Source: Candidatus Gottesmanbacteria bacterium (GTDB lineage: Bacteria > Patescibacteriota > Microgenomatia > UBA10105 > UBA927). From it: DNA of 64,000 nucleotides. The stretch lies in NCBI GenBank assembly GCA_963809665.1, contig CAWEKC010000005.1, positions 11,878 to 75,877 on the forward strand, read 5' to 3'. The first letter of the stretch is position 1. Each line of letters opens with the position of its first letter. The position numbers and the translations under genes were made by a program. The notes under the pieces are model-generated. The model was not told the origin of the DNA and did no database searches. It saw only the letters and a list, made by a program, of their open reading frames with translations. This document shows, one piece after another, positions 518 to 24,465 of this stretch.

Positions 518-2103
518 TGATTCCTCTTCCACAATCTACTGCCCCATCCCGGAACCGGAGTAAAATGCGATTTAATATACGCAACGTTTTCCGGCAAAAG
601 ATGTACAAGTCTCTCTGTACCTCCGTCATACAGATAATCGGCAGGGTGAGCGGATAAATACGTTGCTAAAGAGGGCGGCCCGTGAGAAATATTTGGCACA
701 AAATCATCAAGCGACACACAGCACATTGGATATCCGTCTGACCAAAATACCATTTTACCTTCCAGATCAACGACGCGGGCTGACAATGGCACGGTAACCA
801 CTAATCGGTCGAATTCTGCGCGCTGATCGGCATTTGTTGACAAAATCTTCGGAGCATTAACAGACTGGGTTACCGTGACAAGGACATATCCCAATCCAAC
901 CAACGCAATTGCAAGAGATTGATATCCGCCGACATGGGCAAGCCGGTCAAAAAAAAGAGATATACCATCAGCTGCATAATACGCCACAAATACAGCAGTC
1001 GGAATGAGATACTGGCTATACCTAACCGGAGAAAACTTTAGATATACAATACTAAGCAGTATAAACGTCAGTGCCAAAAGCAGTTCAATTTGCATTTTTT
1101 CCCTATTTCCCTGAGCCTTTACATACGGTGTAACCACGCGATATGCAGCAACGACAAATGCAAGTATCCATATCGCATGATTCACAAGTAACCCTGCTGA
1201 AATTGTACGACCGTCACCGCCGTAGAAGAAAGCGTTCGGGTAGAAAAATAAAAATGGCGCCAGATATTGCCCCCCCTGATAATACTTAGAGATTTCAAAC
1301 GGCATATTCACCACCGAGTACCATGTTACCTGCAGAGTCCCGGTTAGCACAGCCCAACCGAAAAATCCACATAGTACAATCAATATTCCTCCGCTCACGG
1401 CTTCCAGACCCGCCCAGGCAATCTTTTTTCGTTGCAGGCTGAACGACTGAATACTCACCATTGCCGCAACTGCCCACCCGACAAAAACAAGTGGCGCCAG
1501 TTTAATAAGAAATACCAACGATATTCCATACAATACTCCGCTCGTGAACCATACACGCATCGCGTGTATCTTTCTAATAGCGATCACTTCAGTAAGCAAG
1601 CCTGCGCATGCAAAAAGCATGGCTAGTATATCCGGCCTAACTTCCAAAAACTTGTCATACGGCATGGGCAGGAATGCAAGAATAATGACAGGAAGCAGGG
1701 CCCAACGCCACGACCGCGTATACCCAAAGAGAAACCAGAGAACACCGAGAAGTGCGAGAAATATGCCGAATGATAGCTCCCGCGCCGCGATAAATATCTG
1801 AAATGAAATGCCGTAAACCCAAATCAGCGGTGCTAATACCCACATAAATCCGGGTGAAAAGTACGTAATAAAATCAATGTATGGACGCTCCCCACGGGCA
1901 ACCTGTGCGGCCAAATGCAGGTGCAAAAATTCATCAATGTCGAAATACCTCATCTGGCCTACCTGCCAACGCCAAAATACAAGATATGCAAGAATTCCGG
2001 CAAGAAACAAGATAATAATAGTCTTCCATACATGTTTTTTTCCACCAAGATACGGCAGAAGAAAATTTTTTTGTTTTTGAACATACCACGACATGATACT
2101 CAT
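514..2103 (-). CDS. GT-C family glycosyltransferase (ArnT / PMT_2 / family 39-like polyprenyl-phosphate-sugar-dependent transferase)
   Basis: 529-aa polytopic membrane protein. The first extracytoplasmic loop carries the RYFDIDEF (DE) motif typical of ArnT/PMT GT-C enzymes. It has a soluble C-terminal domain and is a tandem paralogue of 2100..3650, with a 4-nt ATGA overlap with the upstream gene. Confidence 0.7.
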   Translation of the reverse strand: MSIMSWYVQKQKNFLLPYLGGKKHVWKTIIILFLAGILAYLVFWRWQVGQMRYFDIDEFLHLHLAAQVARGERPYIDFITYFSPGFMWVLAPLIWVYGISFQIFIAARELSFGIFLALLGVLWFLFGYTRSWRWALLPVIILAFLPMPYDKFLEVRPDILAMLFACAGLLTEVIAIRKIHAMRVWFTSGVLYGISLVFLIKLAPLVFVGWAVAAMVSIQSFSLQRKKIAWAGLEAVSGGILIVLCGFFGWAVLTGTLQVTWYSVVNMPFEISKYYQGGQYLAPFLFFYPNAFFYGGDGRTISAGLLVNHAIWILAFVVAAYRVVTPYVKAQGNREKMQIELLLALTFILLSIVYLKFSPVRYSQYLIPTAVFVAYYAADGISLFFDRLAHVGGYQSLAIALVGLGYVLVTVTQSVNAPKILSTNADQRAEFDRLVVTVPLSARVVDLEGKMVFWSDGYPMCCVSLDDFVPNISHGPPSLATYLSAHPADYLYDGGTERLVHLLPENVAYIKSHFTPVPGWGSRLWKRNQ

Positions 2104-3650
2104 AGTCTTTTTAATAATCTCCCCCCAAATCCCGGAACCGGCGTATAATGTGTGCTGATATACCTGCTGTCTTGGGCTGTGAATGCGGCAAGTCTATTGC
2201 TGTCTCCGTCATAAATATAATCTGCAGGGTGTTTGTCAATGTACTGTGCGAGCGGCAACGGCGGACGGCTCACAAAGGATAAAAATGAACCAAAATCAAA
2301 ACTGGAAATTGGGTATCCATCCCGCCAAAATACCATCCTCCCCTCAAGGTCCACAACGCGCGCGCTCAAGGGAACAGTCCGTAGAAGCGTGGTTAACTCC
2401 GCCATCTGCGATCTGTTCGTGTCCAGTAATTTCGGTCCATTCACGTCTTTATTCACCACGATCAATAGATACGCAAAACCGAGGAGTACGAGCACCAGCG
2501 ATAGATATCCGCCGGCACGCTCAAGCCAGTCAAAAAAACCACTAAATACATCCGCCGCATAGTATGCGACGAATACGGCAATCGGGATGAGGTACTGCGT
2601 ATGCTTCCAGGGAAAAAATTTTACATACGCCGCAGCACTCACAAAAAATACGCCTGCCACAAGAAGTTCAACAAACGTCTCGTTTTTTTTACCTGCCCTT
2701 ATTGGTGTCACCAGCCGATACGCGCCGCCAATTAATCCCACGATCCACATTGTGTGGTTGACAATAAGCCCAAGTGTTATCGTACGTCCGGTTCCCCCAT
2801 AAAAAAATGCGTTCGGGAAAAAAAACAGATCGGCTCCCATATAGTAATTAACTGTGCTTTTATATACTTCAAACGGCAGCTTCGTAAGCGAATACCATAC
2901 AACACTAAAGTGACCTTGAGCTGCCGCACCGAGGAAAAATAGTACCCACGGACCCGTAAGTCCAAGAAAAAACATAAGTATCTTAGGTAACCTAGGTAAC
3001 TTAGAATAAAAAGCCGATAAAACAGCAATTCCTGCCCCCACTGCTACAATCGGTACTGTTTTGGCAAGTACAAACAATGACGCGCTGTATACGAGTCCCG
3101 ACACGAACCATATCCAGTTTTTCTTTTCCCGAATCGCTATAATCTCCCCTACCACACCTAGTATTGCCAACAATGTCGCCAGATTATCAGGCCGAATCTC
3201 TAAAAATTTATCATACGGCATCGGCAAAAAAGCTAATAAAACAACCGGAAGTACTGCCCACTTCCAGCCTCGTGTTATGCCAAATAAATAACCTAAACTC
3301 GCTAATATCCCTAAAAATATGACAAAGGAAACAGTACGGGCCGCCGTAAAGACCTGAACGCTCACCCCATAAATCCAAAATATCGGTGCAAATACCCACA
3401 TAAATCCGGGCGTAAAGTACGAGAAAAAATCCGTGTACATATGCTCTCCCCGTGCCACCTGTGCCGTCCAATGCATATAGGAAAATTCATCAACATCAAA
3501 AAATCGCATGGCGCTGACACGAAACCGCCACACGAGAAGAAACAGGAGAAGTATGATAAGAATGATGTACGATACCTTCCTCATGAGATTCATTGTACTA
3601 TAGAGGTAATCATACGGTCTATTTCTTTTTTCTTTCACCACCTCGCTCAA
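2100..3650 (-). CDS. GT-C family glycosyltransferase (ArnT / PMT_2-like), tandem paralogue
   Basis: 516-aa membrane protein with RFFDVDEF motif and a conserved C-terminus (ARVVDLEG.MVFW.DGYP) shared with 514..2103. Its stop overlaps the next gene's start. Confidence 0.7.
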   Translation of the reverse strand: MSEVVKEKRNRPYDYLYSTMNLMRKVSYIILIILLLFLLVWRFRVSAMRFFDVDEFSYMHWTAQVARGEHMYTDFFSYFTPGFMWVFAPIFWIYGVSVQVFTAARTVSFVIFLGILASLGYLFGITRGWKWAVLPVVLLAFLPMPYDKFLEIRPDNLATLLAILGVVGEIIAIREKKNWIWFVSGLVYSASLFVLAKTVPIVAVGAGIAVLSAFYSKLPRLPKILMFFLGLTGPWVLFFLGAAAQGHFSVVWYSLTKLPFEVYKSTVNYYMGADLFFFPNAFFYGGTGRTITLGLIVNHTMWIVGLIGGAYRLVTPIRAGKKNETFVELLVAGVFFVSAAAYVKFFPWKHTQYLIPIAVFVAYYAADVFSGFFDWLERAGGYLSLVLVLLGFAYLLIVVNKDVNGPKLLDTNRSQMAELTTLLRTVPLSARVVDLEGRMVFWRDGYPISSFDFGSFLSFVSRPPLPLAQYIDKHPADYIYDGDSNRLAAFTAQDSRYISTHYTPVPGFGGRLLKRL

Positions 3651-3710: not shown

Positions 3711-4487
3711 TTATCCTGCCGGCGGTGTCATGAAAGGATCTTTTCTCCCTACTGTGAGTTCATCACATGAAATAATTTCTTTCCTGTGAAATACCGGAAG
3801 TTGATATGGTTTAAAGATCAATGATCGCACATAATTGACTACTGAGCGCGTAGGGAGACGAAATTCGGTGATGTTCCGATTCCGAAAATCAACGGAGGAC
3901 CGTGAATAATAACTCGCTCCTTTCTTTGTTTGCCGATGCGCGCGTATCCTTCTGCCGGAAAGAAGCCTACGGATGTTTTTTTTAAATAATTCGAAGCCAT
4001 AGGACTGATAGAGCTGATAGATATCCCGGCTCGTCATAAATGACGTGATCTTAAACTGTATTTGGTCAATAATCGGCCCGGCATCAATCCGGGGAGAAAT
4101 CACATGGAGGGTCACACCTGTTTTCGCTTCTCCATTACGAAGAGGCCAAACACTCGTTAAACAACCGCGGTAGCTTGGGAGTGCAGAAAAGTGAATATTG
4201 TATGCTCGCCACGTTCCAACTTCATGAGTCCGTATGATCCTATCATATTCTAGTGAAAGAATGATACCATGTGGCGTCGTACGTCCCTCTTTTAAATTTC
4301 CAATAATACGTATACCAAGCTTTTGTGCGCACTTCACAAGCGATGGTTGCCATGTATCCATACCCGTATCTTCCTTATTGGGCAACACAGACATCTCTAT
4401 CGGACCGGAAACTTTTTGCAGATCCCGCAGATATTGCAATGCCGAACATGCGATGGAATTTTTACCGCAAAGGATTATGTTGGACAT
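3711..4487 (-). CDS. sugar N-formyltransferase (formyl_trans_N family, ArnA/FdtF/WlaRD-like)
   Basis: Formyltransferase catalytic motif YNIHFSALPSYRG...TGVTLHVISPRIDAGPII (SLLP/HxSLLPxxRG type). The start is chosen at MSNIILCG; the track ORF extends to 4532. Divergently arranged with the FdtA-like gene. Confidence 0.7.
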   Translation of the reverse strand: MSNIILCGKNSIACSALQYLRDLQKVSGPIEMSVLPNKEDTGMDTWQPSLVKCAQKLGIRIIGNLKEGRTTPHGIILSLEYDRIIRTHEVGTWRAYNIHFSALPSYRGCLTSVWPLRNGEAKTGVTLHVISPRIDAGPIIDQIQFKITSFMTSRDIYQLYQSYGFELFKKNIRRLLSGRRIRAHRQTKKGASYYSRSSVDFRNRNITEFRLPTRSVVNYVRSLIFKPYQLPVFHRKEIISCDELTVGRKDPFMTPPAG

Positions 4488-4582
4488 CTTTTTGCTCGTA
4501 ATTGCCGGTAGTGTCTTTCTCAAGATGGCCATATCATAGCGTCATGGAGCAAACCTTACAACTATGTTACAATTGCCGCGAA

Positions 4583-4990
4583 ATGACTTCGCCAAAAAAA
4601 ATAGTTTTCAACAAACACGGAGCTCCTGTCATCGGGTATTTGACTGCGCCGACCGTGCGGGAAATTCCCTTCCATATCCGGCGCGTATTCTGGACATATT
4701 TTACGCCGGAACGCATTACCCGCGGACGGCATGCCCATAAAAAAACGTCCATTGTACTCGTTGCCGCCACCGGAAAAATAATCGTTACAACCGAAACACT
4801 TGACGGCAGGAAAAAAACATTTGTACTCGATAAACCCAATGTGGGCCTCCTTATACCGCCGATGGTCTGGCACATTCAGCGCTATTCCCATACCGCGATC
4901 CAACTAGCTCTTGCCTCCCGTCCGTTTGAGGAGATGGAGTATATTCGTAATTACCAAACGTTTAAAGCGTATAAAAAAAACAAAAAGTAG
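4583..4990 (+). CDS. WxcM/FdtA-like dTDP-4-keto-6-deoxyhexose 3,4-ketoisomerase (cupin)
   Basis: ~135 aa with the RGRHAHKK motif (RGxHAH of the FdtA/WxcM C-terminal domain family). The start is taken at the internal ATG 4583. The stop TAG at 4988-4990 lies 8 nt before the GT2 start. Confidence 0.6.
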   Translation: MTSPKKIVFNKHGAPVIGYLTAPTVREIPFHIRRVFWTYFTPERITRGRHAHKKTSIVLVAATGKIIVTTETLDGRKKTFVLDKPNVGLLIPPMVWHIQRYSHTAIQLALASRPFEEMEYIRNYQTFKAYKKNKK

Positions 4991-4997
4991 CACCACA

Positions 4998-5679
4998 ATG
5001 GAATCATTGACTTTTATTATCCCCGCCTACAATGACGAAACGACGATAGAAACGGTCATCGATAAAACCGCTGACGTTGGTAAAAAACTTCGGATTCCTT
5101 TTGATATTTTAGTTATTAATGATGCAAGCAGAGATTCTACAGGACACATTCTTAAAAAACTTGAGAGACGTTACGCACATCTGCGTGTCATTACCCATAC
5201 TAAAAATGCTGGCTACGGTCAAACAATCAAAGAATTGTATCAGAAAGCAACTCACACATGGCTCTTTTCGTTGCCGGGTGACTATCAAATTGACCCCCGC
5301 GAGTTTCTAAAGATTTGGCAGCGTCGCGGTGAAGCAGATATGATCATTGGATGGCGCCGTATACGGGCTGACAGCCCAGCAAGACTTTATCAATCACATA
5401 TATATAATAAACTTTTATCTTTCATATTTAGTCTTCCTATACACGACGTAAATTCCGTGCGACTCATGAAAACGTCGATTATAACTACCGTTCAATTGTC
5501 ATCATTATCTGCGTTTGTTGATGCGGAACTTGCTATTCAAGCCCGTAAAGCACGGATTTCACGTAACCGAGGTGCCCATTGCACACCGTGCACGCGCAGG
5601 AACGGGAGCCAGCGGCGGGAAACTCACAACTATATTACCAACCATAAAAGATATGATCGTGTTCTTTTTTCGGTTATGA
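4998..5679 (+). CDS. GT2 polyprenyl-phosphate glycosyltransferase (DPM1/ArnC-like), frameshifted in this assembly near 5550
   Basis: MESLTFIIPAYNDE...VINDASRD...NAGYG is a GT2 signature. After ELAIQARKA the track frame runs into an implausible R-rich peptide, whereas the -1 frame reads GFHVTEVPIAHRARAGTGASGGKLTTILPTIKDMIVFFFRL*, the expected GT2 C-terminus. One extra base around 5551-5555 separates the two frames. The stop TGA at 5677-5679 overlaps the aminotransferase ATG. Confidence 0.65.
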
Positions 5680-6752
5680 TTCCGATTTTTGATCTCACCC
5701 GTGAGTATAAAACCATCGCAGCAGAGCTGACTCTTTCGTTTACCCGCACGGCAAAAAGGGGTATGTTTATCCTCGGCCAAAACGTATCGGTCTTTGAAAA
5801 GGAATTTGCTGACTTTACCGGGGTTACATACGCCGTTGGCGTGGCAAGCGGTACCGATGCCCTTACGCTCGGACTCAGGGCGCTTGGTATTCAACATGGC
5901 GATGAAGTCATCCTACCTGCAAACGCCTACCCAACGGCATTCGGTGTCGCTCTTAGCGGCGCGCGCATACGTCTTGTTGACGTTAAAGGCGACGGCACGA
6001 TGGATCCGGTGCGTCTTGCTGATACCGTTTCCAACCGTACCCGCGTCGTTATCCCCGTCCACTTGTACGGCAACCCCGCCGATGTCGTTTCCCTGATAAA
6101 AATAGTCAAAAATAAAAAAATTGCTTTGGTTGAAGATGCCGCGCAGGCTCATGGAACTGATTCGGCGGGGTCGCTGGGCGATATTGGCTGTTTCAGCTTT
6201 TACCCGACGAAAAACCTCGGGGCACTCGGTGATGCCGGCATAGTGGTGACAAATAAAAAATACATTGCCGACCGCATCACGCGACTTCGCATGTACGGGG
6301 AAACCAAGCGGTATGAGAGTATTGAGGTCTCCGGCGTCAGCCGGCTGGACGAACTACAGGCGGCTTTTCTTCGTGTTAAACTACACCACTTAAATGCTTG
6401 GGTTACCCGCCGACGTGATATCGCAAAACAATACATTGAAGAATTACGCGGCACCGGTGATATTCAATTTGTCACAAATAATACCCGGGGTGCCTATCAT
6501 GTGTTTGTCATCCGCACAAAACACCGGAACGCCCTCCGACAGTATCTCGCTGTCCGCGGTATCGGAACTGCAATTCACTACCCCGCGCCTATTCATCTCG
6601 TTCGTGCATTCCGGGATCTGGGATACAAAAGCGGTGATTTTCCTGTATCCGAGTCGCTCTCGCGGGAAATCCTCTCCATCCCGATGTTTCCGAGGCTTAC
6701 TGACGGCGAAATTCTCCGGGTGGTCCGAACTGTCAAAAAATATTTTCAATAG
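5676..6752 (+). CDS. DegT/DnrJ/EryC1/StrS family PLP-dependent sugar aminotransferase (ArnB/FdtB-like)
   Basis: MIPIFDLTREYK... with the full DegT-family fold sequence (GVASGTDALTL, DAAQAHG, SFYPTKNLGALGDAG). The track fuses it to the upstream GT2 because of the frameshift. The true start ATG 5676 overlaps the GT2 stop (ATGA). Confidence 0.8.
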   Translation: MIPIFDLTREYKTIAAELTLSFTRTAKRGMFILGQNVSVFEKEFADFTGVTYAVGVASGTDALTLGLRALGIQHGDEVILPANAYPTAFGVALSGARIRLVDVKGDGTMDPVRLADTVSNRTRVVIPVHLYGNPADVVSLIKIVKNKKIALVEDAAQAHGTDSAGSLGDIGCFSFYPTKNLGALGDAGIVVTNKKYIADRITRLRMYGETKRYESIEVSGVSRLDELQAAFLRVKLHHLNAWVTRRRDIAKQYIEELRGTGDIQFVTNNTRGAYHVFVIRTKHRNALRQYLAVRGIGTAIHYPAPIHLVRAFRDLGYKSGDFPVSESLSREILSIPMFPRLTDGEILRVVRTVKKYFQ

Positions 6753-8414
6753 CTACCAGTGATACACGCGAAAAAGGCCGAGGTTGTAGATCTCTGTAAG
6801 AAACGGGTATGTCGTTGACAAATTCCCCAGTCCGCCGTCCGCCATTTCCTGCGGACCGAAAAATATATAGTGAAGATTATTGGCACCCAAAAACTCCTTC
6901 GCCTGCATTGGGCTCATGGTACCGGCGAAAAAATCCTTTACTACCATCTCTTTTTTCTCCGTATTGACCGTATTGGCGTGCCCCACATACACCGTGTTGC
7001 CGGAGATTACCGGCAGATAATTACCTGCCGTGGTTTCTGAAAGGATCACCGTATCGCGGCTCGTGTGGTCCTGGATAAATATCATCGTGGTAATATAATC
7101 TTTTAAAGGATACATCACATAACTTCCGGTCGGCACCAGTGGTTGGGTTGCGCTGATTTTCTGATCCAAAAATTCCTTTTGCCACCGCCACGAGGAATAC
7201 ATTTGTCCCAGACCCATGGTTACCAAAAGGACCGGGACAACGATAAACAGGTACCGGTACGGCTTAATACATACCCGATACAGCGAATAAAAAAGGTAAC
7301 ACGCAAGGAATCCCAATGGTACCTGCGGCATCATTTCCGTAAACCTCAGGGGCGATTCCTGCGGGATAAATTGAAATGCGATAATACATACAAACCATGC
7401 GATAGCCCAGGCAACGAAAATAAATAACCTGCGTTCACGCTTAATAAGCACCAATACCCCTCCGATTGCACCCAATAGAAGTATCGGTCCTACAGCCAAA
7501 AGATACTCCCTCAGGATAAACGGCGGCGGATGCAGTATGGAATAATCAATGAGCCGTTTCCACGGATATACTTTTACGATAAGGGAAAAATATAAAAGCG
7601 TCGGGGTGCTGATCGCGCCGGCAACCGCGGGTCCCGCAACGCGTTCAATTATCCATGACCGGATCTCGCGTCGCGCCAGCGGCAATCTGTACAAAAAATC
7701 AATGATGACAAATACCCCCCACGCGGCGAACACGAACCCGAGACCAGCAGGAAATACGATGCCCAGCATAAACGCCAAAAACCCAAGCATCACCCAATTC
7801 CCCGCTTTTCTCATGACTTCGCGCTGGGCCATCGCAATCAGAAGAAATACAATTATTGCTTGGCCTGCCAGCATATGCGGGACAAACGTAATCCGCTGTA
7901 ACGAATCCATGATGCTCCACCACGGCATGTACCCGCCGAACCGCCACTCATTCTGATGAAAGACAAGCATCGGCCAGGATGCGGCGGTAACGGCAAGTAA
8001 AAATGCCAATAGTTGCCATCTATAGCGGAATATTTCAAACGCCCATTTGGCGGCATACGCTATAAGAAATAAGAGTGCAGCAGCAAGAACTATCCGTGCC
8101 GCGTGATAGGTATCTCCGCTATTGGACCATGGCACGTCATACCATGCGGACACTTTTCCCATCAGGAGGTACAGTATCTGGACATAGGACCCCTTGTGAG
8201 GTTCGGACGTGTACTTTTCCGTTACCGAAATAGCCCCTTCCCTCCCCTCGCGTATCCGGGAAAGGTAAAAATTATAATCCGTGTAAAAATTATGGACGAG
8301 TTCAAACTGCCGGTTAGGGTGCAGATCACCTTGACGGGACAACTCGTAAAACATCGGCACGAGAGAAAACAGCAAGAAGAAAAAAACTAATAGTCCCCAA
8401 TATAATCGCCGCAT
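6753..8414 (-). CDS. large polytopic membrane protein, putative GT-C-type glycosyltransferase
   Basis: 553 aa with more than 10 predicted TM helices and a soluble C-terminal domain. It is convergent with the aminotransferase gene. The family is not recognised confidently. Confidence 0.45.
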   Translation of the reverse strand: MRRLYWGLLVFFFLLFSLVPMFYELSRQGDLHPNRQFELVHNFYTDYNFYLSRIREGREGAISVTEKYTSEPHKGSYVQILYLLMGKVSAWYDVPWSNSGDTYHAARIVLAAALLFLIAYAAKWAFEIFRYRWQLLAFLLAVTAASWPMLVFHQNEWRFGGYMPWWSIMDSLQRITFVPHMLAGQAIIVFLLIAMAQREVMRKAGNWVMLGFLAFMLGIVFPAGLGFVFAAWGVFVIIDFLYRLPLARREIRSWIIERVAGPAVAGAISTPTLLYFSLIVKVYPWKRLIDYSILHPPPFILREYLLAVGPILLLGAIGGVLVLIKRERRLFIFVAWAIAWFVCIIAFQFIPQESPLRFTEMMPQVPLGFLACYLFYSLYRVCIKPYRYLFIVVPVLLVTMGLGQMYSSWRWQKEFLDQKISATQPLVPTGSYVMYPLKDYITTMIFIQDHTSRDTVILSETTAGNYLPVISGNTVYVGHANTVNTEKKEMVVKDFFAGTMSPMQAKEFLGANNLHYIFFGPQEMADGGLGNLSTTYPFLTEIYNLGLFRVYHW

Positions 8415-8448: not shown

Positions 8449-9081
8449 GTGTGTGTGGAAAATGATATGTCTTCTTATAAAAAAGCTGCCGCAGTAGCTG
8501 TTGTGATTACCGTTATCGGCATTGTGTTGGTCATAATAAATTACCGTCAGATATCAGGGAGACAGGGTACTATCGTTATTCCGGCCGGGAATACGTACCT
8601 CGGGCCTACTCCCACACAGGCGCCCGGTACTGCAGCGTGGCAAACGGTAAAAGGACACATCTATCCCTATACCCTGAGTGTTCCGGGGACGATTACGCTT
8701 ACAACATTCCCCAACGACCCATACGACATGTACGCCCTCGGGGGCAACGACCCTTCTTCAAATGTCCTCATTGGCGTTGATGATCTTTCAAAAAATGCCG
8801 ATCGCAATGCGTATATCAATCAACCAAAAACCGTCTATATCAACCAATGGTGGAAACAATTCAGTGTGCTTACCGGCGTTAAACGTATCGACCCGTTTAC
8901 AAACAGCAAAGGGCTTAAGGGATATAAAGTAAAATTTCTTGCTACCGGCGGCGAGAGCCCGAGTCTGGATATTTTTTTTGAAGTCGCGGCAGCACCCCAA
9001 TATGTCATCCATTTAAGTAACGGTCAGTTGGACGCGGCCGTATTTGACAGGATTGTTGACAGTGTCGGGTGGGAGCAATAA
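8449..9081 (+). CDS. hypothetical membrane-anchored protein
   Basis: 210-aa ORF with one N-terminal TM helix (AAAVAVVITVIGIVLVII) and a secreted domain. Its TAA overlaps the next ATG by 1 nt (TAATG). Confidence 0.4.
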   Translation: MCVENDMSSYKKAAAVAVVITVIGIVLVIINYRQISGRQGTIVIPAGNTYLGPTPTQAPGTAAWQTVKGHIYPYTLSVPGTITLTTFPNDPYDMYALGGNDPSSNVLIGVDDLSKNADRNAYINQPKTVYINQWWKQFSVLTGVKRIDPFTNSKGLKGYKVKFLATGGESPSLDIFFEVAAAPQYVIHLSNGQLDAAVFDRIVDSVGWEQ

Positions 9082-10934
9082 TGAAAAAATCCTCCCTGCC
9101 TCTTATCTTTATTGCAGGATGCATGCTCGCATTATTTATCCGACTGCTGCTTATTCCCAATCCGGGTTTTGAAGCGGATATTTCTTTTTGGAAATCCTGG
9201 GGGCTTGCGGTTTTGGACTTCGGTATCATCAAAGGGTTATCTGTCACGAATTTCAACTACCCCACACCGTTCGGGTATTTCCTTGCACTCATGCCGGCCG
9301 TGTACAGGATCTTCGCCGACCCGCATAATTTCGATCAATATTGGCAAAATACCAATGTATTATTCCTGATCATTTCCAAACTGCCGGCAGTTATAGCAGA
9401 CTTCGGGATTGCCGGACTGATTCTTTGGATCGGCAGGAATGCCAAAAAAATCGGATTCCCTGATCTTTCAATGCCGTTCTATGCAGTGCTGGCTCTTGCT
9501 TTTTTACTCAATCCCGTTTCATGGATGGACAGCGCATGGTGGGGCCAGGTTGACAGCCTCGGGGTGATCGTCTTTTTTGGTGCGTTTCTTCTCGTGGTTA
9601 CGAAAAGACCGTTTTTAGCGGGTGTTGTGTACATGATCGCCATGCTGACCAAACTCCAAAACATGATTTACGGACCGATTTTTTTTCTGTTTATCTGGCA
9701 ATACTTGGGTTTTAACGGACTCGTACGCAGTCTTGCAGGGTCGCTGGTCACGTTCATTGGCCTCAATATTGAATTCATACTTTCCGGCAGCATGTGGAAG
9801 GTCATTGAGTCTCTTACGGGCAATTACGATTATTTCCCTTGGCTCTCGCTTAATGCGTTCAATCTCTGGTGGATCGTATCCGGCGCCCGCGGGATGCAAT
9901 TTTCGGACAAATTGCTATCAGTGGGTCTTGCTAACGCCAAAACCGTTGGCCTTACCCTCTTCTCTGCCGGATATTTGCTTGCAGCGTTACTTCTGAAACC
10001 GTTCGCGTTTCTTAAAAAAAATAAGGACGACCCGCCAACAGTTGTCTATCAATTCCTTACCGCTATCGTTATTGCCAACGCTTCCTTTTTCCTGTTTCAG
10101 ACGGAATCACATGACCGCTATGCATACCCTCTTATTGTCTTCCTGCTCCTCTGGGGTGCTTTTTGGATCCGGCGCCATTTGACGACAAAAGAAATGCCGG
10201 ATGTTTTTACCAGTAAACCGTTTCGCGCAGTTGCCTTTTTCTATGTGCTCTTCACGCTCTTTTACTTCTATAACCTCCATACGGCGTTGGTGTTTAATTA
10301 TCCGGGAAACGGTGTGCCCATCCTCTCATCGCTCATTCAACCCAACCTGACCATCAGCATATCGCTTCTTTTTATCGGTTTGTTTTTCTTCTTTCTGTAC
10401 ATCATCCGGCACGATACATCAATCTGGACCTTCATGGCGCCTTCCGCGTTGGTCATTTGTATGCTTACGTCAAAAAATATGCCGCTTATTACACATGCGC
10501 CGGTTTTCCTTACTGCAATGACCCCGGTTTCCGCATCCCAGGATTATGGAATACGGCAGATAAACATGCCGGTCAACGCATTTTCGGGATTTGATAAATG
10601 GGGATCCCTGTCGGTCCAGTATGCCTTCTACCGTCACGGGATCGGGACGCACGCCAACAGCACACAAACATTTGACGTACATAAATATTTCAGCCGGTTT
10701 TCATTCGACTATGGCATCGATACCGAGGCCGGACCCAAAGGAACGACCATCTTTGAAGTAATCGGTGATGACAAAAAACTTTTTGTATCGGAAAAAATCG
10801 GCCGGTATGATCCGCCGCGGCATGCGGATGTTGATATTACGGGAGTGAGTACCCTGAAACTCGTCGTTACCGATGCCGGGGACGGTATTACCGATGACCA
10901 TGCAGATTGGCTGAATCCGAAATTAAGTTGGTAA
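9081..10934 (+). CDS. GT-C-like polytopic membrane protein with C-terminal NPCBM (NEW2) carbohydrate-binding domain
   Basis: The N-terminal ~480 aa are multi-TM. The C-terminal ~130 aa match the NPCBM domain motifs closely (GIGTHANS..., FSFDYGIDTEAG, TTIFEVIGDDKKLFVS, LKLVVTDAGDGITDDHADWLNPKL). The start is taken at ATG 9081 (MKKSSLPLIF). Confidence 0.6.
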   Translation: MKKSSLPLIFIAGCMLALFIRLLLIPNPGFEADISFWKSWGLAVLDFGIIKGLSVTNFNYPTPFGYFLALMPAVYRIFADPHNFDQYWQNTNVLFLIISKLPAVIADFGIAGLILWIGRNAKKIGFPDLSMPFYAVLALAFLLNPVSWMDSAWWGQVDSLGVIVFFGAFLLVVTKRPFLAGVVYMIAMLTKLQNMIYGPIFFLFIWQYLGFNGLVRSLAGSLVTFIGLNIEFILSGSMWKVIESLTGNYDYFPWLSLNAFNLWWIVSGARGMQFSDKLLSVGLANAKTVGLTLFSAGYLLAALLLKPFAFLKKNKDDPPTVVYQFLTAIVIANASFFLFQTESHDRYAYPLIVFLLLWGAFWIRRHLTTKEMPDVFTSKPFRAVAFFYVLFTLFYFYNLHTALVFNYPGNGVPILSSLIQPNLTISISLLFIGLFFFFLYIIRHDTSIWTFMAPSALVICMLTSKNMPLITHAPVFLTAMTPVSASQDYGIRQINMPVNAFSGFDKWGSLSVQYAFYRHGIGTHANSTQTFDVHKYFSRFSFDYGIDTEAGPKGTTIFEVIGDDKKLFVSEKIGRYDPPRHADVDITGVSTLKLVVTDAGDGITDDHADWLNPKLSW

Positions 10935-11021
10935 ACGGCTGAACCAGTTTTTTCGCGCGCAAATGGGAACCCTGAAAGGGACGTGAGAACGAAAAACTTG
11001 GTGAAGCCGCAAAAATGTCAT

Positions 11022-13349
11022 ATGAAACATATTGGAAAATATATCAGTATTGCAATGTTAGTTTTTGCCGTCGGGTTTAATCTGTGGCTGTACCGCACGG
11101 AACCTACGGCGAAAGTAGATCCGAATGACAATACATTCCAATTCGCGCTGGTCTACCGGACGAACCAGATATGGGATTTTGCAACCAAAAAGTGTTCAGG
11201 GAATATTTTGACGTTTCCCGTCTGTCACTTCTCCTATCTTGCCGACCACTGGGTTCCTAACTGGAATGAAGGATATAATCTTCCCTTTTATTATTCCCAT
11301 ATCCCACAAATTGTTATCGTCGCCTCCTGGCGGTTCATTCATTTATTCGCGGGATCCATGTCTCTGTTTCAGTATTACCACTATGTTATTTATTTTCTTC
11401 TGTGCCTGTTCCCTCTATCGGTATTTTTAGCCCTCCGGGTTACGGGTCTCCCGTTGATTACTGCGGGACTGGGTACACTATTGGCATCCCAGATCTCCAC
11501 AGACGGGTTATACGGCCTTGATCCGTCGTCATTTTTATGGCGCGGGTACGGCCTAAGCAGCCAGTTGTTTGCCATGATCTGGCTCCCGCTGGCTATCGCG
11601 TACTGCTGGCGCGCGCTATCTTCCAAACGCGCAGTTATTCCTGCGACGATATTCCTCATTCTTACCACGGCCGGACATCTTGGTATTGGTATGATGACAT
11701 TTTTAGCCCTTATTCCCCTGACGCTTGCCGCACCCATATTGGCTTTTTTTCAAAAGCAATCTCCGCAAAAAATATTCGAACCGCTCAAAAAAAATATCAT
11801 AGTGCTTGGTATTATTGCAGTCATCGCCATAGGGTTCTTAAGCTACTGGATCCTGCCGGCAATATCCCTTGATCGATTCCACAATTTTTCCTTCTGGGAT
11901 CCGATATGGAAATTTAACTCCTACGGCGCCAAGGAGACACTGACCCGCCTCGGGAACGGCGCGCTTTTCGATTTCGGGAGGCTGCCTCTTATGACCGGAT
12001 TGGTTCTCGTTGGGCTATTCGCCGGTAGTGCGGAATTTACCATGCTTTTGGTATTTTTCATTCTCCTCTATTTCGGCCGGACAACGTGGGGCAACGTGCT
12101 CGATATTATTCCCGGCATGAAGGAATTCCATTTATCACGTTTTATCGTCGGCGTCCACATGGCCGGCCTCTTTTTGGCTCCAATCGGACTTGCGTGGCTT
12201 TGGGAAAACGCGTCGTCGGCTGTCGCCCGGATTATTCTCATTCCGAAAAAATATATATCGATCGTTCTGTTAATTCTGATTATTGTTTTTATCTTTCCCG
12301 CCATCTACGGGCAAACTGTCCGGTACGCCAAATATAACGATACGCTTATTGCACAGGCCAATGCCAATTATACCAAACAGTCTGCGGGAGCAAGCCGCCT
12401 CGTCGCGGCCCTGCAGGAACTGGAAAAGACAGCGCCCGGCCGGGTGTTTAGCGGGAGGGGCGGCGGGTGGGGCCATAGCTTCGTTCTGGCCGAAACCACG
12501 ATGACGATGTACCTGGGAAATTTTGCATTACCGACCGTATTATGGCTTCCGGAAACCTGGTCACCAAACGGCGACACCGAACAGTATTTCCGCGAAAATT
12601 TCAGCGAAGATTATGATCTTTACAATATCCGCTATGTGGCCGCGCCTGCAAATTTAGCCAAAACCGACATACAACCATTCTGGAAAATGATTCAAAAAAA
12701 TCCGTCATGGAATATTTATGAGGTAAAAACTTCTGGATATTTTACGGCGGGTGTACGGCCTGCAGTTGTTGCATCTGATAAATACTCGTTCACCAACGTC
12801 ATACGTCTCTGGATCCAGTCAAGCGACCCCAAAAACGACCTGTACCCGCAGCTCTCGTTCGACACAAAAAGCTATCCGGTGAACGTAGGATTACCTAACT
12901 TCAAAATGACTGATGAGGTAACGTTTCAGGTGCCAAACGGCTCACTGCACAACATTTTTGCGGAACCGCCGAAATATGAATCCCCCTACCTGCCTGCCGG
13001 CAGGCAGGTTGCCATATCGAACCAGACTGACGACACTGATATGATTTTCACAGCCCGGGCGAGCGTTCCGGATGGCTGCACCGAATGTATGGTAATTTTA
13101 AAACAAACGTTTCATCCCGGATGGCGCATCACTGTGGATGGAAAATCTGTGACGCCTATTATTACATTCCCTTTCTTTATCGGCATTCCGGTTTCCGCAG
13201 GAACACACGAGATCGTCGCCGCATATCAGCCTTCTGCTATAAAAGTAGTATTGATCTGGATCGAATTCCTGACCGTTATTGCCCTCGTTATATGGTTCAT
13301 CGCACGAAAACTGGGGATTGACAAGAAAGCCGTTCATATCCCACACTAA
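11022..13349 (+). CDS. very large polytopic membrane protein (YfhO/GT-C-like putative glycosyltransferase)
   Basis: ~775 aa with many TM helices and a large extracytoplasmic C-terminal domain. Start is at ATG 11022; the track starts at GTG 10983. It contains one copy of the palindromic LPAGRQ element at 12989-13008. Confidence 0.45.
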   Translation: MKHIGKYISIAMLVFAVGFNLWLYRTEPTAKVDPNDNTFQFALVYRTNQIWDFATKKCSGNILTFPVCHFSYLADHWVPNWNEGYNLPFYYSHIPQIVIVASWRFIHLFAGSMSLFQYYHYVIYFLLCLFPLSVFLALRVTGLPLITAGLGTLLASQISTDGLYGLDPSSFLWRGYGLSSQLFAMIWLPLAIAYCWRALSSKRAVIPATIFLILTTAGHLGIGMMTFLALIPLTLAAPILAFFQKQSPQKIFEPLKKNIIVLGIIAVIAIGFLSYWILPAISLDRFHNFSFWDPIWKFNSYGAKETLTRLGNGALFDFGRLPLMTGLVLVGLFAGSAEFTMLLVFFILLYFGRTTWGNVLDIIPGMKEFHLSRFIVGVHMAGLFLAPIGLAWLWENASSAVARIILIPKKYISIVLLILIIVFIFPAIYGQTVRYAKYNDTLIAQANANYTKQSAGASRLVAALQELEKTAPGRVFSGRGGGWGHSFVLAETTMTMYLGNFALPTVLWLPETWSPNGDTEQYFRENFSEDYDLYNIRYVAAPANLAKTDIQPFWKMIQKNPSWNIYEVKTSGYFTAGVRPAVVASDKYSFTNVIRLWIQSSDPKNDLYPQLSFDTKSYPVNVGLPNFKMTDEVTFQVPNGSLHNIFAEPPKYESPYLPAGRQVAISNQTDDTDMIFTARASVPDGCTECMVILKQTFHPGWRITVDGKSVTPIITFPFFIGIPVSAGTHEIVAAYQPSAIKVVLIWIEFLTVIALVIWFIARKLGIDKKAVHIPH
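12989..13008. repeat. GC-rich palindromic element copy A (CCTGCCTGCCGGCAGGCAGG), in frame in a membrane-protein gene (LPAGRQ)
   Basis: 20-nt perfect palindrome read directly from the sequence. Confidence 0.8.
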
Positions 13350-17322: not shown

Positions 17323-19458
17323 TCAGAGCACTTTATAAATGACCGTTTCGCCGGAGGTGAAGACAGGAGTCCCTAGCTCGTTGAATTTCGATTCCTGAAG
17401 ATTGGTAAATTTCTGCCGTTCCAGTGTTCCGACAAAAATATATCTCACCTGATATTTTTCCAAAACCGCTTTCGTCTCATTGATATCCGTTGATTCATAA
17501 ATCAGCTTCACTTCTTCTTTGCGCGGCGCAACGATGTCATAGGACCCGCGCCAGAGCCATTCATGGACGGACCATCCCACAATGGTCGGTATCCCAGTAA
17601 ACACGCTTACCTGGTCGTAATCGGTGTAACTGTCTCCGTCGGCTTCCACAAGCACGGGATTGTGGCCTAATTTCCCATTTTTAAGTCCTTCATTCAACCA
17701 TTGAATTCCCGCCCAATTATCCTGATACTGGGTACTGATCCATCCCGTCCCGTTAATTCCCTCATACTGTTTCAGGCTATTGAAATACGACCGTACGCTG
17801 AAAATGGGATAAATGGACACCAGGAACAGTTGCGGGGCTAATAATATAAAAAACAGCATCCGTTTTTTGTGCCGTGTCATCGTAGCGATCACATATCCGG
17901 AAATAATCGAAAACATGATAAATGCCTGATACCCCAGTTTGAACATTGTGTTGCTACGGAAATGCATGGGGTAGATATCTTTAAAATAGAAAAATTCAGG
18001 AAAAATAATAAGAAGAATTGAAAACACAAAAAATATTCCCAGCAGGAGATCCTGATGTTCCGGCAATTTATTACGTGTGATTTTTTTAATCAACGGGACG
18101 AGTAAAAATAATCCGCAGTAGATGAAAAATCCCCACAGCAACCACATCATCCACAGCGGGCTATGCTGGCACTTTTCCACTCCCTCAAACAGAACCGGCC
18201 CGAATTTCGTATCGGCAAGAGCCGCGGGCGGACAATTGACGGCAATCCCCGAAACAAACGATTTGAAATATAGTAAAAACGGCAAACTGCATATACCCGC
18301 CGTAATTATCGTAATGCCGCCCGTAATGGCCGCCTTTTCCCATGATAGCTTTTTGAAAACCGCGTTGAATACAACTAACGCTATGAGAAATAATCCCAGA
18401 TATATCGGCCCGTCCAGTGCGTTGGTCATCAGGAGCACGCTGCACAAAAATCCGTAAAAAATATAGATACCCCATTCGCTTTTTTCCTGCCTGCCGGCAG
18501 GCATATCCATAAACAACCGTATAAGAAGCGCTATGGCCAAAAGCACAAACGGGATTGACAGTACGTGCCCGTGGACGTCCGACACGACAAACGAGTAGCT
18601 CGGAAATTCATGGATCGTATACGGGATAAACCGCGTAGCATTGGCATACCAGTAACGGTTCAGGCCGTCCGGCAGGCGGGAAATGAAATTCCCGATCGGC
18701 CACAGAATTGTCCAGAACGGCACAACCTTGTCCCCATCATACCCCTGGGTAAACGCGTAAATCGTCTGCATGTTGCCCGCAAGGGTTACCAGAAATGCGG
18801 TAAAGAGTCCTCCCCCGATTTTCCCGGCAATACTCATCCCTTTTCTGACGCGTAACAGTTGCACCCCGATACCAAACGACATGGTGCAGGTGAATGCAAA
18901 AATCGCCGCCAGCATAAGATTAAACGTATACGTAAGATCGATACCGCTCATCCGTGTCAGGACCGCCATGACGGTATGCCCGAAATAATAGTAGTTAATG
19001 GTGCCTCCGGCGTACCACATATCCGGCGCCGGAAAAAATTTGCTATCAAGGATGGATTTGGTAAAACCGAAATCCATAAATTTTTCAAGATTATGGATGC
19101 TCGGCTCGTGCGCTTTTACCCAGGACCACAATAAAAGTGCGGCAAAAAAGAACAGTTCCTCCGATACCATACGGAGAGCGTTATTCCGTATATTTCCCTT
19201 TTCCCCTGAATTTTTTCTCCGGAGGATTACTCCGGCTGCAAATGTGAGTCCCATGGCGCCCCACACAGCCCCCTGAGTAAACGGGATGATGTGGAGTACT
19301 CCGGCCAAATACACGAGGAACGTCACTACCGCCATACCCACGGCTTTGGAGAAAATATACGATAACCCTAATTTTCGGGTGAGAGGATATGCCACCGCGC
19401 CGATCAAAAATAACGTTCCCCACCATTGGAAAACTATTACCACATCTGACATCGGCAT
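17323..19458 (-). CDS. DUF2298 / Chlor_Arch_YYY family polytopic membrane protein (putative GT-C-like)
   Basis: 711 aa, multi-TM, with the signature GGTINYYYFGH (YYY motif). Carries the palindromic element at 18486-18503 (MPAGRQ). Confidence 0.6.
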   Translation of the reverse strand: MPMSDVVIVFQWWGTLFLIGAVAYPLTRKLGLSYIFSKAVGMAVVTFLVYLAGVLHIIPFTQGAVWGAMGLTFAAGVILRRKNSGEKGNIRNNALRMVSEELFFFAALLLWSWVKAHEPSIHNLEKFMDFGFTKSILDSKFFPAPDMWYAGGTINYYYFGHTVMAVLTRMSGIDLTYTFNLMLAAIFAFTCTMSFGIGVQLLRVRKGMSIAGKIGGGLFTAFLVTLAGNMQTIYAFTQGYDGDKVVPFWTILWPIGNFISRLPDGLNRYWYANATRFIPYTIHEFPSYSFVVSDVHGHVLSIPFVLLAIALLIRLFMDMPAGRQEKSEWGIYIFYGFLCSVLLMTNALDGPIYLGLFLIALVVFNAVFKKLSWEKAAITGGITIITAGICSLPFLLYFKSFVSGIAVNCPPAALADTKFGPVLFEGVEKCQHSPLWMMWLLWGFFIYCGLFLLVPLIKKITRNKLPEHQDLLLGIFFVFSILLIIFPEFFYFKDIYPMHFRSNTMFKLGYQAFIMFSIISGYVIATMTRHKKRMLFFILLAPQLFLVSIYPIFSVRSYFNSLKQYEGINGTGWISTQYQDNWAGIQWLNEGLKNGKLGHNPVLVEADGDSYTDYDQVSVFTGIPTIVGWSVHEWLWRGSYDIVAPRKEEVKLIYESTDINETKAVLEKYQVRYIFVGTLERQKFTNLQESKFNELGTPVFTSGETVIYKVL
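18486..18503. repeat. palindromic element copy C (CCTGCCTGCCGGCAGGCA), in frame in the DUF2298 gene (MPAGRQ)
   Basis: 16-nt perfect palindromic core TGCCTGCCGGCAGGCA. Confidence 0.75.
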
Positions 19459-23190: not shown

Positions 23191-24465
23191 ATGAAACATA
23201 AAATAATAGCATTTATTTTATTCTGGACGGCAATAATCTTTTTCGGACTATTTCCCCTTCCCCGCCCGACGTATGCAGACTATCAGGAACTTGGAAAAAA
23301 AGAGTTGTTGGGTCCGATTGGTCAAAATAGTTCCCAATATTCACCATGGATCATGCACGGACAGGGATGGGGCAGCTACGTGATGTATTACTGTAAAAAT
23401 TCGCCGATTAACAATGTCTGGCGCGACCGGGTATATCGGATTGAAAACTTTAATGACGGCATATCAGGAAGCTGGATCGGCGACCAACCGGTAATCGAGG
23501 GTTCTGACGGCCAAAATGATGATTTGTCCTGTTCCCCCGGGGTTCTTATAGACAATCAAAATACGTGGCATATGTATTACGTCACGGCAAACAGGAACAC
23601 CGGTTGTGATGTGTACCTATACCACGCAACAGCAACCGCCCCGGGAACAAATTGGGTGAAACAAGGTGTTATCAATATCGATGGGAAACCGATGTCCGCT
23701 GTTCCAAACTGTAATCTTGAAACACCAAGTCCGTATTTTATTAACGGTACATATGTACTTTATTATGCAGGCGCCCCCGGTAAAATAGTTCGTCTTGAAA
23801 GTACTGACGGATATAATTTTACCAATCAGACAACCATAAGTCTTCGCGAACCGTTGGGAGGATCCGGCAGGGTAATAATCGTTAACGGACAGTATTACTA
23901 TACGTACAACAGGAATCCTACAAGCGGATACTTACCCTCCACACAAATACTTATAACACAATCGTCGGACGGGATACATTTCTCTCCATCTGAATTACTT
24001 ATGGCTTCGTCAGGATCAGGTTGGGATGGTGACAGGATGTGGAGCCCTTTTCCGATGTTTGTTAATAATGAATTACGGGTGTATTACGCCGGCAATATCG
24101 GTAATTATGGGTGGTTTGGTGCAAATACGTCAATTGGCGTCCGTTGGTTCAGTATGCCAACTATGACTACGCCTACGCCAACGAAAACACCCACGCCGAC
24201 GCCAACCAGAACCCCGACACCTACCCCGACACGCACTCCTACATTGACTCCCACGGCAACAATCAGATTAACCCCGACTCCTACTCCTGCTTCCATACCC
24301 GGTGATCTCAATGGTGATCATACGGTCAATATTTTTGACTACAACATACTGATCGGCGATTTCGGGAAAACCGGTTCACCGGGCTGGATTCCGGCTGATA
24401 TCAATAAAGACGGAAAAGTAGATATTTTCGATTATAATGCGCTGGTAGGTAATTTTGGAAAATAA
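23191..24465 (+). CDS. secreted beta-propeller (glycoside-hydrolase-like) protein with Pro/Thr linker and C-terminal type-I dockerin
   Basis: N-terminal signal peptide. Repeated WHMYY/YVLYYAG/YYYTYN blade-like motifs. Linker [25 protein letters not shown]. Two dockerin repeats [21 protein letters not shown] and [21 protein letters not shown]. Confidence 0.7.

Follow-up and report, generated by a model that had tools for sequence, protein, structure and literature searches.

The 64,000-nt stretch analysed here (the window) was taken from the forward strand of contig CAWEKC010000005.1 of a Candidatus Gottesmanbacteria bacterium (positions 11,878 to 75,877). It contains an open reading frame (ORF) at 9081-10934 whose product joins a polytopic membrane domain of the GT-C glycosyltransferase (GT) fold to a C-terminal NPCBM/NEW2 domain. 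The gene is preceded on the same strand by a gene for a small membrane-anchored protein and followed by a gene for a second polytopic protein, which resembles YfhO; a further polytopic protein is encoded divergently on the upstream side (Table 1). The reading frame proposed in the initial annotation was confirmed, with an ATG start codon at 9081, a TAA stop codon at 10932-10934 and a product of 617 amino acids (aa), to which a protein deposited in NCBI/ENA (P0001) is 100% identical. A GTG codon located four codons upstream, at 9069, is a possible but less likely start. The ATG codon was preferred because a Shine-Dalgarno-like GGGAG (within GGGTGGGAGcaaTAATG) lies 7 nt ahead of it and because it overlaps the TAA stop codon of the upstream gene by one base (TAATG). 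No second copy of either the NPCBM or the GT-C domain was found in the window.

The C-terminal part of the protein (aa 475-615) was identified as an NPCBM domain, the Pfam counterpart of carbohydrate-binding module (CBM) family CBM51 of CAZy. It matched the Pfam profile PF08305 (NPCBM/NEW2) with 116.1 bits, compared with a gathering cut-off of 23.9 (E = 1.5e-33), over profile positions 3-136 (134 of 137). The same profile was matched by all 54 homologs tested. The initial annotation had recognised the domain by its signature blocks, all four of which are present (GIGTHANS at aa 520, FSFDYGIDTEAG at 540, FEVIGDDKKLFVS at 558 and VTDAGDGITDDHADWLNPKL at 596), and had named the lack of a significant PF08305 match as the result that would speak against it; the score obtained is far beyond chance. 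Sequence searches of the PDB matched CBM51-1 of ZmpB (7js4; E = 2.6e-30 with the family profile, 6.9e-18 with the single sequence), GH95CBM51 (2vmg, 2vmh), CBM51-2 of ZmpB and a GH110 alpha-galactosidase (GH, glycoside hydrolase). A structure prediction, which had likewise been called for beforehand, led to the same result. The full-length AlphaFold model reached a mean predicted local distance difference test score (pLDDT) of 87.7 and a predicted template modelling score (pTM) of 0.87, and its C-terminal part was fitted by Foldseek to the CBM51 crystal structure 2vmg (E = 1.8e-8, TMt 0.78, root-mean-square deviation 3.3 Å). The model was also paired with 7js4, 7jrl, 2vng and 2ygl, which include CBM51s of GH98 enzymes. 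Block-averaged pLDDT values over the NPCBM region ranged from 46 to 95 and were mostly 70-95, a loop at aa 501-510 being the sole stretch with very low values. Motifs common to the domain and the solved CBM51s are Y..GIGTHA, GxD.E and DAGD..DHA. The domain thus has the family and fold of the CBM51/NPCBM modules of GH95, GH98, GH110 and M60 (ZmpB) enzymes, at 24-31% identity. Whereas those modules are carried by secreted degradative enzymes aimed at host glycans, the domain described here sits on a membrane enzyme of biosynthetic type and is predicted to lie at the membrane surface. Among the fusion proteins, it is more conserved than the transmembrane (TM) domain, with a mean pairwise identity of 41.8% versus 34.1%.

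The membrane domain (aa 1-445) was assigned to the GT-C superfamily on structural and on sequence grounds. When aa 1-472 were modelled alone, the pLDDT was 88.0 and the pTM 0.90, and the model has, besides the juxtamembrane helices of outer loop 1, a second outer loop of great length (aa 236-285). In the Foldseek search with the full-length model, the sole matches at E<=0.001 other than CBMs were ALG6 (E = 1.1e-4, TM-score 0.47/0.59) and EmbB (E = 4.7e-4), with PIG-U next (E = 0.012). Every high-probability match of the TM-only model has the GT-C fold, with STT3 at the top, followed by PIG-U, ALG9 and AglB. Evidence that does not depend on the structure models came from 18 members of 21-63% identity (alignment A3), whose TM-domain profile matched the solved glycosylphosphatidylinositol (GPI) mannosyltransferase 1, PIG-M (E = 3.5e-8, positions 101-209). 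Pfam searches, equally independent of the models, pointed in the same direction. Of 54 close homologs, 24 matched the GT87 profile at E<=1 (best E = 1.6e-6). Among 18 deep members of the family, matches to GT87, Alg6_Alg8, PIG-U, PMT_2 and ALG3 were obtained. The relatives P0218 and P0254 exceeded the cut-off of GT87, and P0146 that of Alg6_Alg8. For the protein itself, GT87 (PF09594) was the best of the Pfam GT-C families, with 16.6 bits compared with a cut-off of 25 and coverage of profile positions 32-230. PF04188 (Mannosyl_trans2, GT76) was matched neither by the 54 homologs at E<=1 nor by the 18 deep members. The protein therefore has the fold of, and belongs to, the GT-C superfamily, near the group formed by GT87, GT57 and GT50, and is assignable to no defined family. 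The earlier description as a GT-C-like membrane enzyme is borne out by the 13-helix model, the fold matches, the PIG-M profile match and the GT87 and Alg6_Alg8 matches of the homologs.

In the alignment, which extends down to 21-27% identity, 25 positions of the TM domain are invariant, including D33, W154-G155-Q156-x-D158, K191-x-Q193, N261, W264, D276 and T341-x-x-H344-x-R346-Y347. Several of them can be compared with PimE, in which the catalytic base D58 lies at the tip of juxtamembrane helix 1, D160/Q163 are part of the layout, the phosphate is bound by K195 and H322, with K195 contacting the polyprenyl phosphate, and an arch loop follows TM7 (PMC12041525). In the model, D33 is located in the first turn of juxtamembrane helix 1, right after TM1. 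By its position, it would parallel D58 of PimE and the catalytic aspartate of ALG6, ArnT and PglB; the neighbouring E31 is kept only among close relatives. The WGQxD158 motif would be comparable in position to D160/Q163. K191 aligns with a lysine of PIG-M in the profile match, and H344 would correspond in place to the phosphate-binding H322. Position 345 is occupied by D or E across the family, and the specificity of the pattern TQxHERY sufficed to recover 252 relatives in genomes. The outer loop after TM7 comprises 50 residues.

By Pfam, PDB profile and fold, PimE (GT87), ALG6 (GT57) and PIG-M (GT50) are the closest GT-C relatives. They share with the protein the aspartate at juxtamembrane helix 1, the lysine after TM5, the histidine after TM9, roughly 12 TM helices and the long outer loop after TM7. 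Unlike the protein, they have neither a CBM nor a thirteenth helix, and it scores below threshold for each of their families. These mycobacterial and eukaryotic enzymes act on lipids or on lipid-linked glycans.

The topology was derived from the helix boundaries in the AlphaFold models in combination with the positive-inside rule. The models contain 13 TM helices, with the juxtamembrane helices of loop 1 at aa 31-54 and 64-78. Lysine and arginine account for 11 of 48 residues (23%) in the cytoplasmic loops and for 7 of 145 (5%) in the outer loops. The predicted topology has the N-terminus inside and the C-terminus outside the cell, which would place the CBM on the same face as the invariant residues D33, WGQxD158, K191 and H344-x-R346-Y347, which all fall in predicted outer loops. 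The NPCBM domain starts at about aa 474-475, some eight residues or fewer after TM13, with a short helix reaching aa 471. Three relatives that lack it (P0143, P0146 and P0248; 406-428 aa) stop a few residues past TM12 with a basic tail and have neither TM13 nor the CBM. Since these proteins end just past TM12, the module joined to the GT-C domain appears to consist of TM13 together with CBM51. When the TM domains were arranged in a neighbour-joining tree, the proteins without NPCBM fell inside the fusion clade at two places, which suggests loss or paralogy and not a late gain of the CBM.

The fusion architecture is real, common in Microgenomates and the standard form of a large family. A word-indexed search returned at least 408 homologs; the best 120 of them are 575-682 aa long, carry PF08305 and are nearly all full length (one covers 46% of the query). 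An exhaustive search among 50%-identity representatives yielded about 30 clusters of full-length fusions, down to 26-28% identity and including high-GC lineages. In GTDB species representatives, 252 loci were found, and the same architecture is present in all of the best 80, to which the locus counts given below refer. These 80 belong almost without exception to Gottesmanbacteria, Woesebacteria, Roizmanbacteria or other Microgenomates. In the databases, the proteins are named 'NPCBM/NEW2 domain-containing protein' (Candidatus Gottesmanbacteria or Patescibacteria) or, in an automated JGI annotation, 'Gpi18-like mannosyltransferase'. The initial annotation had regarded the attachment of NPCBM to a polytopic membrane protein as unusual. 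The arrangement is less unusual than assumed there, given a large Microgenomates family in which it is standard and automatically annotated, and given the documented combination of GT-C domains with C-terminal extracytoplasmic CBMs in EmbA/B/C, AftD and ORF12 of GT136. A description of the NPCBM/CBM51-GT-C architecture was not found in the literature; an apparent CBM51 in a paper on diatom chitin synthase turned out to be CBM_5_12, matched falsely by the text search. Outside the family, the nearest NPCBM domains occur in giant proteins of 1000-5000 aa with multiple NPCBMs, which look like surface proteins.

Three further observations concern the family as a whole. Many records of metagenome-assembled genomes that carry a cluster of the Microgenomates type (L006, L008, L009 and others) are titled 'uncultured Gammaproteobacteria bacterium', probably as a placeholder or by mislabelling. 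One Gottesmanbacteria genome contains two copies of the module about 18 kb apart on contig CAVQFA010000001.1 (L024, L061). In P0217, P0218 and P0254 (836-1161 aa), a region related to the GT-C domain is embedded in a much larger protein, and P0217 may hold two such regions.

Table 1. Features of the NPCBM-GT-C gene and of the genes around it (positions in the window).
Feature	Position	Strand	Remarks
NPCBM-GT-C fusion coding sequence	9081..10934	+	617 aa plus stop; single uninterrupted frame in ORF list
GT-C-fold membrane domain, aa 1-445 (TM1-TM12)	9081..10415	+	AlphaFold, Foldseek, profile match to PIG-M, Pfam matches of homologs
D33 codon, candidate catalytic base	9177..9179	+	invariant in all 25 aligned members, down to 21% identity
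W154-G-Q-V-D158 motif	9540..9554	+	outer end of TM3/TM4; W154, G155, Q156 and D158 invariant
K191 codon, candidate donor-phosphate ligand	9651..9653	+	invariant; between TM5 and TM6
H344-D-R346-Y347 motif	10110..10121	+	outer end of TM9/TM10; H344, R346 and Y347 invariant
TM13 (aa 448-465)	10422..10475	+	helix in both AlphaFold models; returns chain to the outside
NPCBM/CBM51 beta-sandwich domain (aa 475-615)	10503..10925	+	PF08305, CBM51 sequence and fold matches; predicted extracytoplasmic
YfhO-like polytopic protein (775-788 aa)	10983..13349	+	downstream partner; likely start ATG 11022
Small anchored protein (204-210 aa)	8449..9081	+	upstream of the fusion gene; start of gene callers ATG 8467
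553-aa polytopic membrane protein with soluble C-terminal domain	6753..8414	-	divergently transcribed, beside the module
N-formyltransferase, ArnA-N/Fmt-like	3711-4532	-	Pfam/NCBIfam
FdtA-like 3,4-ketoisomerase	4502-4990	+	PF05523, E = 5.5e-32
GT2-DegT aminotransferase fusion	about 4998-6752	+	Pfam/NCBIfam

The most informative evidence on function is the genomic context, which the initial annotation had missed: a YfhO-like partner, the small anchored protein and an aminosugar/GT2 donor pathway. Neighbours were counted by a local tblastn search of the neighbouring proteins of the window against the 80 loci. The YfhO-like gene lies downstream on the same strand in 77 of them, with a median gap of 58 nt. 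Pfam YfhO was matched by 12 of 24 orthologs of the downstream protein (best E = 9.6e-9); the protein of the window itself reached 27.2 bits (cut-off 28.5) and gave a weak match to NCBIfam PgfM1, and PDB sequence searches with it returned nothing meaningful. In P0234 (1325 aa; locus L084, 165-4142), a YfhO-like half and an NPCBM-GT-C protein are naturally fused; the YfhO-like half matches the downstream gene of the window with E = 9e-56, and the fused gene is found on four contigs from several samples. At the high-GC locus of the 28% identical homolog P0252 (L086), the order is reversed: a YfhO-like gene (E = 1e-50) comes first, and the start of the fusion gene overlaps it. The pairing spans the whole depth of the family and occurs in either gene order as well as in a single polypeptide, and it is therefore strong evidence of a shared function. 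In an hhalign comparison, no similarity was detected between the YfhO-like family and the GT-C domain (probability <1%).

The gene for the small protein is found upstream on the same strand at 60 of the 80 loci and appears, from the overlapping codons, to be translationally coupled to the fusion gene. An alignment of the small protein (A7) shows a TM anchor, a near-invariant (I/L)P(A/G)GxTYLG motif, a linker and a conserved globular domain. The linker is rich in Pro, Thr, Ser and Ala, of low complexity, and varies from ~10 to ~70 residues between species. It resembles the Ser/Thr-rich regions that are glycosylated by YfhO-type enzymes in streptococci. Database searches with the small protein gave no Pfam or PDB match, and its homologs are all named 'hypothetical'. 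A scan for promoters and terminators returned counts no higher than those in shuffled sequence and weakly supports a single operon spanning 8449-13349.

The 553-aa protein is encoded upstream, mostly on the divergent strand, at 61 of the 80 loci. The loop that follows TM1, 'ELVHNFxTDYNFYLSRIRxG', contains the invariant residues E38, H41 and D46. Searches of Pfam and the PDB with the protein and with its ortholog profile gave no match, and a profile-profile comparison of its family with the GT-C domain revealed no similarity (probability <1%). It may represent an undescribed family.

Genes that could supply a donor sugar lie 2.3-5.4 kb upstream of the fusion gene, the GT2 gene being the nearest (2.3 kb). 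The GT2 part of the GT2-DegT fusion is closest to polyprenyl-phosphate glycosyltransferases of the ArnC, AglJ and PgfS type, with all scores below their cut-offs. By analogy with the Fdt/Qdt and Arn pathways, the genes of the window could make a nucleoside diphosphate (NDP)-3-formamido-3,6-dideoxyhexose and transfer the sugar to polyprenyl phosphate. In an 80% identical relative (L001), the same genes are present in unfused form, with an acetyltransferase in place of the formyltransferase. The link of the donor-sugar genes to the fusion gene is loose.

The first part of the window (1-22333) contains seven large polytopic membrane proteins within 22 kb, which is an exceptional density. Similarity of the GT-C type was found for four of them, namely the fusion protein, its YfhO-like partner, a DUF2298/chlor_Arch_YYY protein (17323-19458) and a PMT_2 protein (20708-22333). 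The other three (514-2103, 2100-3650 and 6753-8414) have no family match. Two of these, at 514-2103 and 2100-3650 on the reverse strand, are tandem paralogs of 529 and 516 aa without a Pfam or NCBIfam match. Both carry 'RYFD(I/V)DEF' in the loop after the first TM helix, which is reminiscent of the acidic motifs of GT-C enzymes, and homologs of the pair are located near the module at ~20 of the 80 loci. Further downstream, a gene for a dockerin protein with a weakly GH32-like N-terminal region (23191-24465) is adjacent to one for a cohesin protein (24495-25682). Together, they form a cohesin-dockerin pair of the cellulosome type in a Patescibacteria genome.

Three groups of characterised systems were compared with the module. 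The mycobacterial arabinofuranosyltransferases EmbA/B/C and AftD combine a polytopic GT-C domain with a lectin-like CBM at the C-terminus, outside the cytoplasm, an arrangement also predicted for the protein described here. The CBM of EmbC recognises the acceptor polysaccharide, and efficient extension of the arabinan chain depends on it (PMC3044687; PMC11127046). Sequence similarity to GT53 is absent, and the alignment with EmbB has a TM-score of only 0.25. The CBM families also differ, and the Emb/AftD proteins comprise ~1100-1400 aa, compared with 617 aa for the Patescibacteria protein. The second group is represented by ORF12 (GT136) of Citrobacter youngae O1. This enzyme adds a pentofuranose outside the cytoplasm as part of a three-component system that further includes a polyprenyl-phosphate sugar synthase and a flippase, and its C-terminal periplasmic CBM binds the unmodified O-antigen backbone (PMC11127046). 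The CBM of ORF12 is Ig-like and not a CBM51, and no homology between the two proteins was detected. In contrast to the three-component GT136 set, the partner at the present locus is a second GT-C protein, with no flippase recognised in the window. As judged from the model, the protein fits the design class of GT-C enzymes with a C-terminal extracytoplasmic CBM (Emb, AftD, GT136), which is not a homologous family.

The third comparison concerns the partner. In the YfhO/GtlB/PgfM1/PgtC2 systems of Firmicutes, a GT2 enzyme makes an undecaprenyl-phosphate sugar, which a YfhO-type GT-C enzyme transfers, outside the cell, to teichoic acid or to Ser/Thr-rich protein regions, and the Pgf operon encodes two GT-C proteins (PMC5836110, PMC8035078, PMC12041528). 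The downstream partner is YfhO-like and the nearby GT2 is weakly PgfS/ArnC-like, whereas the fusion protein itself is not YfhO-like. PgfM1 and PgfM2 are both of the YfhO type and lack a CBM51, unlike the module described here.

The analysis establishes the identity of both domains, the fold, the conservation of residues, a predicted topology and the gene linkage with its natural fusion. From these comparisons, we infer a catalytic activity for the fusion protein, together with its donor type, the roles of its conserved residues, the ligand of its CBM and its acceptor. It is probably an extracytoplasmic GT-C glycosyltransferase that uses a polyprenyl-phosphate sugar as donor, holds its acceptor glycan by means of the CBM and is partnered with the YfhO-like GT-C protein. 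The initial annotation had suggested that the architecture couples glycan binding to a membrane glycosyltransferase, and this is the reading with the best support. According to the model, the active site would face the outside, and CBM51 would be held beside it at the outer surface of the membrane, immediately after TM13. The donor would be synthesised by a cytoplasmic GT2 enzyme and flipped outward, its phosphate being held by K191, H344 and R346. D33 would then deprotonate the acceptor hydroxyl, and the enzyme would most likely be of the inverting type. The ligand of the CBM may be the acceptor glycan or a sugar that the partner has just added, and its binding would keep the glycan at the active site. 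Such tethering could raise affinity or processivity, as for the CBMs of EmbC and of ORF12 (GT136). The protein would act together with the YfhO-like GT-C protein, probably also with the small anchored protein, and the module would build or decorate a glycopolymer or glycoprotein of the cell envelope of these Patescibacteria. Because enzymes of the YfhO family glycosylate teichoic acids or Ser/Thr-rich segments, the acceptor could plausibly be a polymer of the envelope or a protein segment rich in Ser, Thr and Pro, perhaps the linker carried by the small protein.

Several results weigh against this assignment as a catalytic, polyprenyl-phosphate-sugar-dependent enzyme. The protein exceeded the threshold of no individual Pfam GT-C family and gave no match in NCBIfam. 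The Foldseek statistics of the TM-only model were weak (E = 0.04-1, best 0.037; TM-scores of 0.4-0.5), and PimE was not among its top 50 matches. Its top match was STT3, and the donor could instead be a lipid-pyrophosphate oligosaccharide. With respect to donor supply, GT2-DegT genes were found within 6 kb at only 20 of the 80 loci and a formyltransferase at one, and a GtrA-, Wzx-, MATE- or SMR-like flippase was not recognised in the 64-kb window; the membrane proteins met in that search were unrelated (DsbD, a P-type ATPase, VKOR, an Rce1-like protein and DUF4870). The ligand site of the CBM is a further point. The galactose site of GH95CBM51 is formed by a tyrosine platform and two histidines (secondary description, PMC9513282). 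In a tentative mapping by HMMER alignment, the protein has retained the tyrosine (Y517) and the first histidine (H524, invariant) and has N526 at the place of the second, so that only part of this site appears to be conserved.

Four other explanations were weighed against the catalytic reading and are considered less likely, mainly because the catalytic-type residues are invariant, the tether is very short and the CBM is highly conserved. It is rather unlikely that the GT-C domain is a non-catalytic scaffold or lipid-binding domain comparable to PIG-U and the protein a lectin subunit that presents glycans to a catalytic YfhO-like partner. PIG-U is indeed among the best structural matches (TMt 0.51-0.53), one distant member matches Pfam PIG-U (E = 4.4e-7), the L086 locus has a weak PIG-U tag, and tight coupling or fusion to another GT-C protein would suit an accessory subunit. 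On the other hand, the full GT-C-type set of catalytic and phosphate-binding residues (the aspartate of outer loop 1, the lysine and the His/Arg pair) is invariant down to 21% identity and is retained in the stand-alone relatives without NPCBM, and catalytic families (GT87, Alg6/Alg8, PIG-M, ALG3 and PMT_2) are matched by more homologs than PIG-U. We regard as improbable a role of CBM51 as an adhesin for glycans of a host or partner cell, in which case the membrane domain would be mainly an anchor or would work on the surface of the host and not on the envelope of its own cell. The notion is suggested by the foreign (host) glycans bound by characterised CBM51/NPCBM domains (galactose, GlcNAc, blood-group antigens), by the frequent episymbiotic lifestyle of Patescibacteria and by the surface-like, giant multi-NPCBM proteins that are the nearest outside relatives. 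Yet a tether of ~8 residues or fewer after TM13 would put the CBM at the membrane surface, with no stalk toward another cell. Host-specific adhesion is hard to reconcile with a CBM that is better conserved than the TM domain in widely differing lineages, some of them high-GC, 12-13 helices with invariant catalytic-type residues exceed what an anchor needs, and the conserved linkage to a second GT-C protein points to biosynthesis.

Similarly improbable is true membership in GT87 (PimE-type alpha-1,2-mannosyltransferases) or GT76 ('Gpi18-like' proteins), by which the enzyme would make a mannolipid or mannan and the CBM would be a minor addition. GT87 is the most frequent Pfam match of the homologs, the automated JGI name refers to a Gpi18-like mannosyltransferase, and the layout of the motifs is PimE-like. 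The sub-threshold, partial GT87 match of the protein and the lack of a PF04188 match argue against it, as do the equally good matches of other members to Alg6/Alg8 or PIG-M, by which the family lies between defined GT-C families; moreover, sugar specificity cannot be read from so distant a similarity. An origin of the fusion from a frameshift, misassembly or ORF-calling error has a negligible probability; it was considered only in view of the metagenome-type source, and nothing in its favour was found. The gene consists of a single frame, and the same architecture recurs in hundreds of independent assemblies at 96-100% coverage, at 80 of the 80 best loci and in the ~30 clusters at 50% identity, on which grounds an artefact was rejected.

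A more elaborate scheme builds on the preferred reading as an extracytoplasmic glycosyltransferase and is put forward tentatively, since we consider it doubtful in this specific form. Here, the small protein, the CBM51-GT-C protein and the YfhO-like protein would constitute a lectin-guided unit specific to Patescibacteria, with separate genes for the two GT-C proteins in most lineages and a fused gene in some. The YfhO-like enzyme would prime a Ser/Thr-rich segment, possibly that of the small protein, or an envelope polymer; CBM51 would read the primer sugar, and its own GT-C domain would extend it as a new CAZy GT family between GT87, GT57 and GT50.

The principle of joining a GT-C enzyme to an acceptor-binding CBM is already known, and the sequences are present in databases under automated names. 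What appears to be undescribed is a CBM51 on a biosynthetic membrane enzyme, its attachment via an added thirteenth helix and, for a large Patescibacteria family outside the defined GT families, the fact that a YfhO-like GT-C protein is an obligatory partner. Known from Actinobacteria and Proteobacteria, the principle would now reach a third lineage, one that branches deeply. Work on CBM51 has to date dealt with enzymes that are secreted and break down glycans, and further settings, for example in predicted intracellular immunity proteins, are no more than proposals; the protein described here would add a biosynthetic one. With its YfhO-like partner, the family is also a candidate for a new GT family. 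The invariant residues provide clear targets for mutagenesis, and the soluble CBM51 (~145 aa) could reveal the sugar epitope that is displayed. As Patescibacteria (candidate phyla radiation, CPR) are largely uncultured and their cell envelopes almost uncharacterised, a lectin-bearing GT-C enzyme may offer an unusually tractable entry point into the envelope biology of this group.

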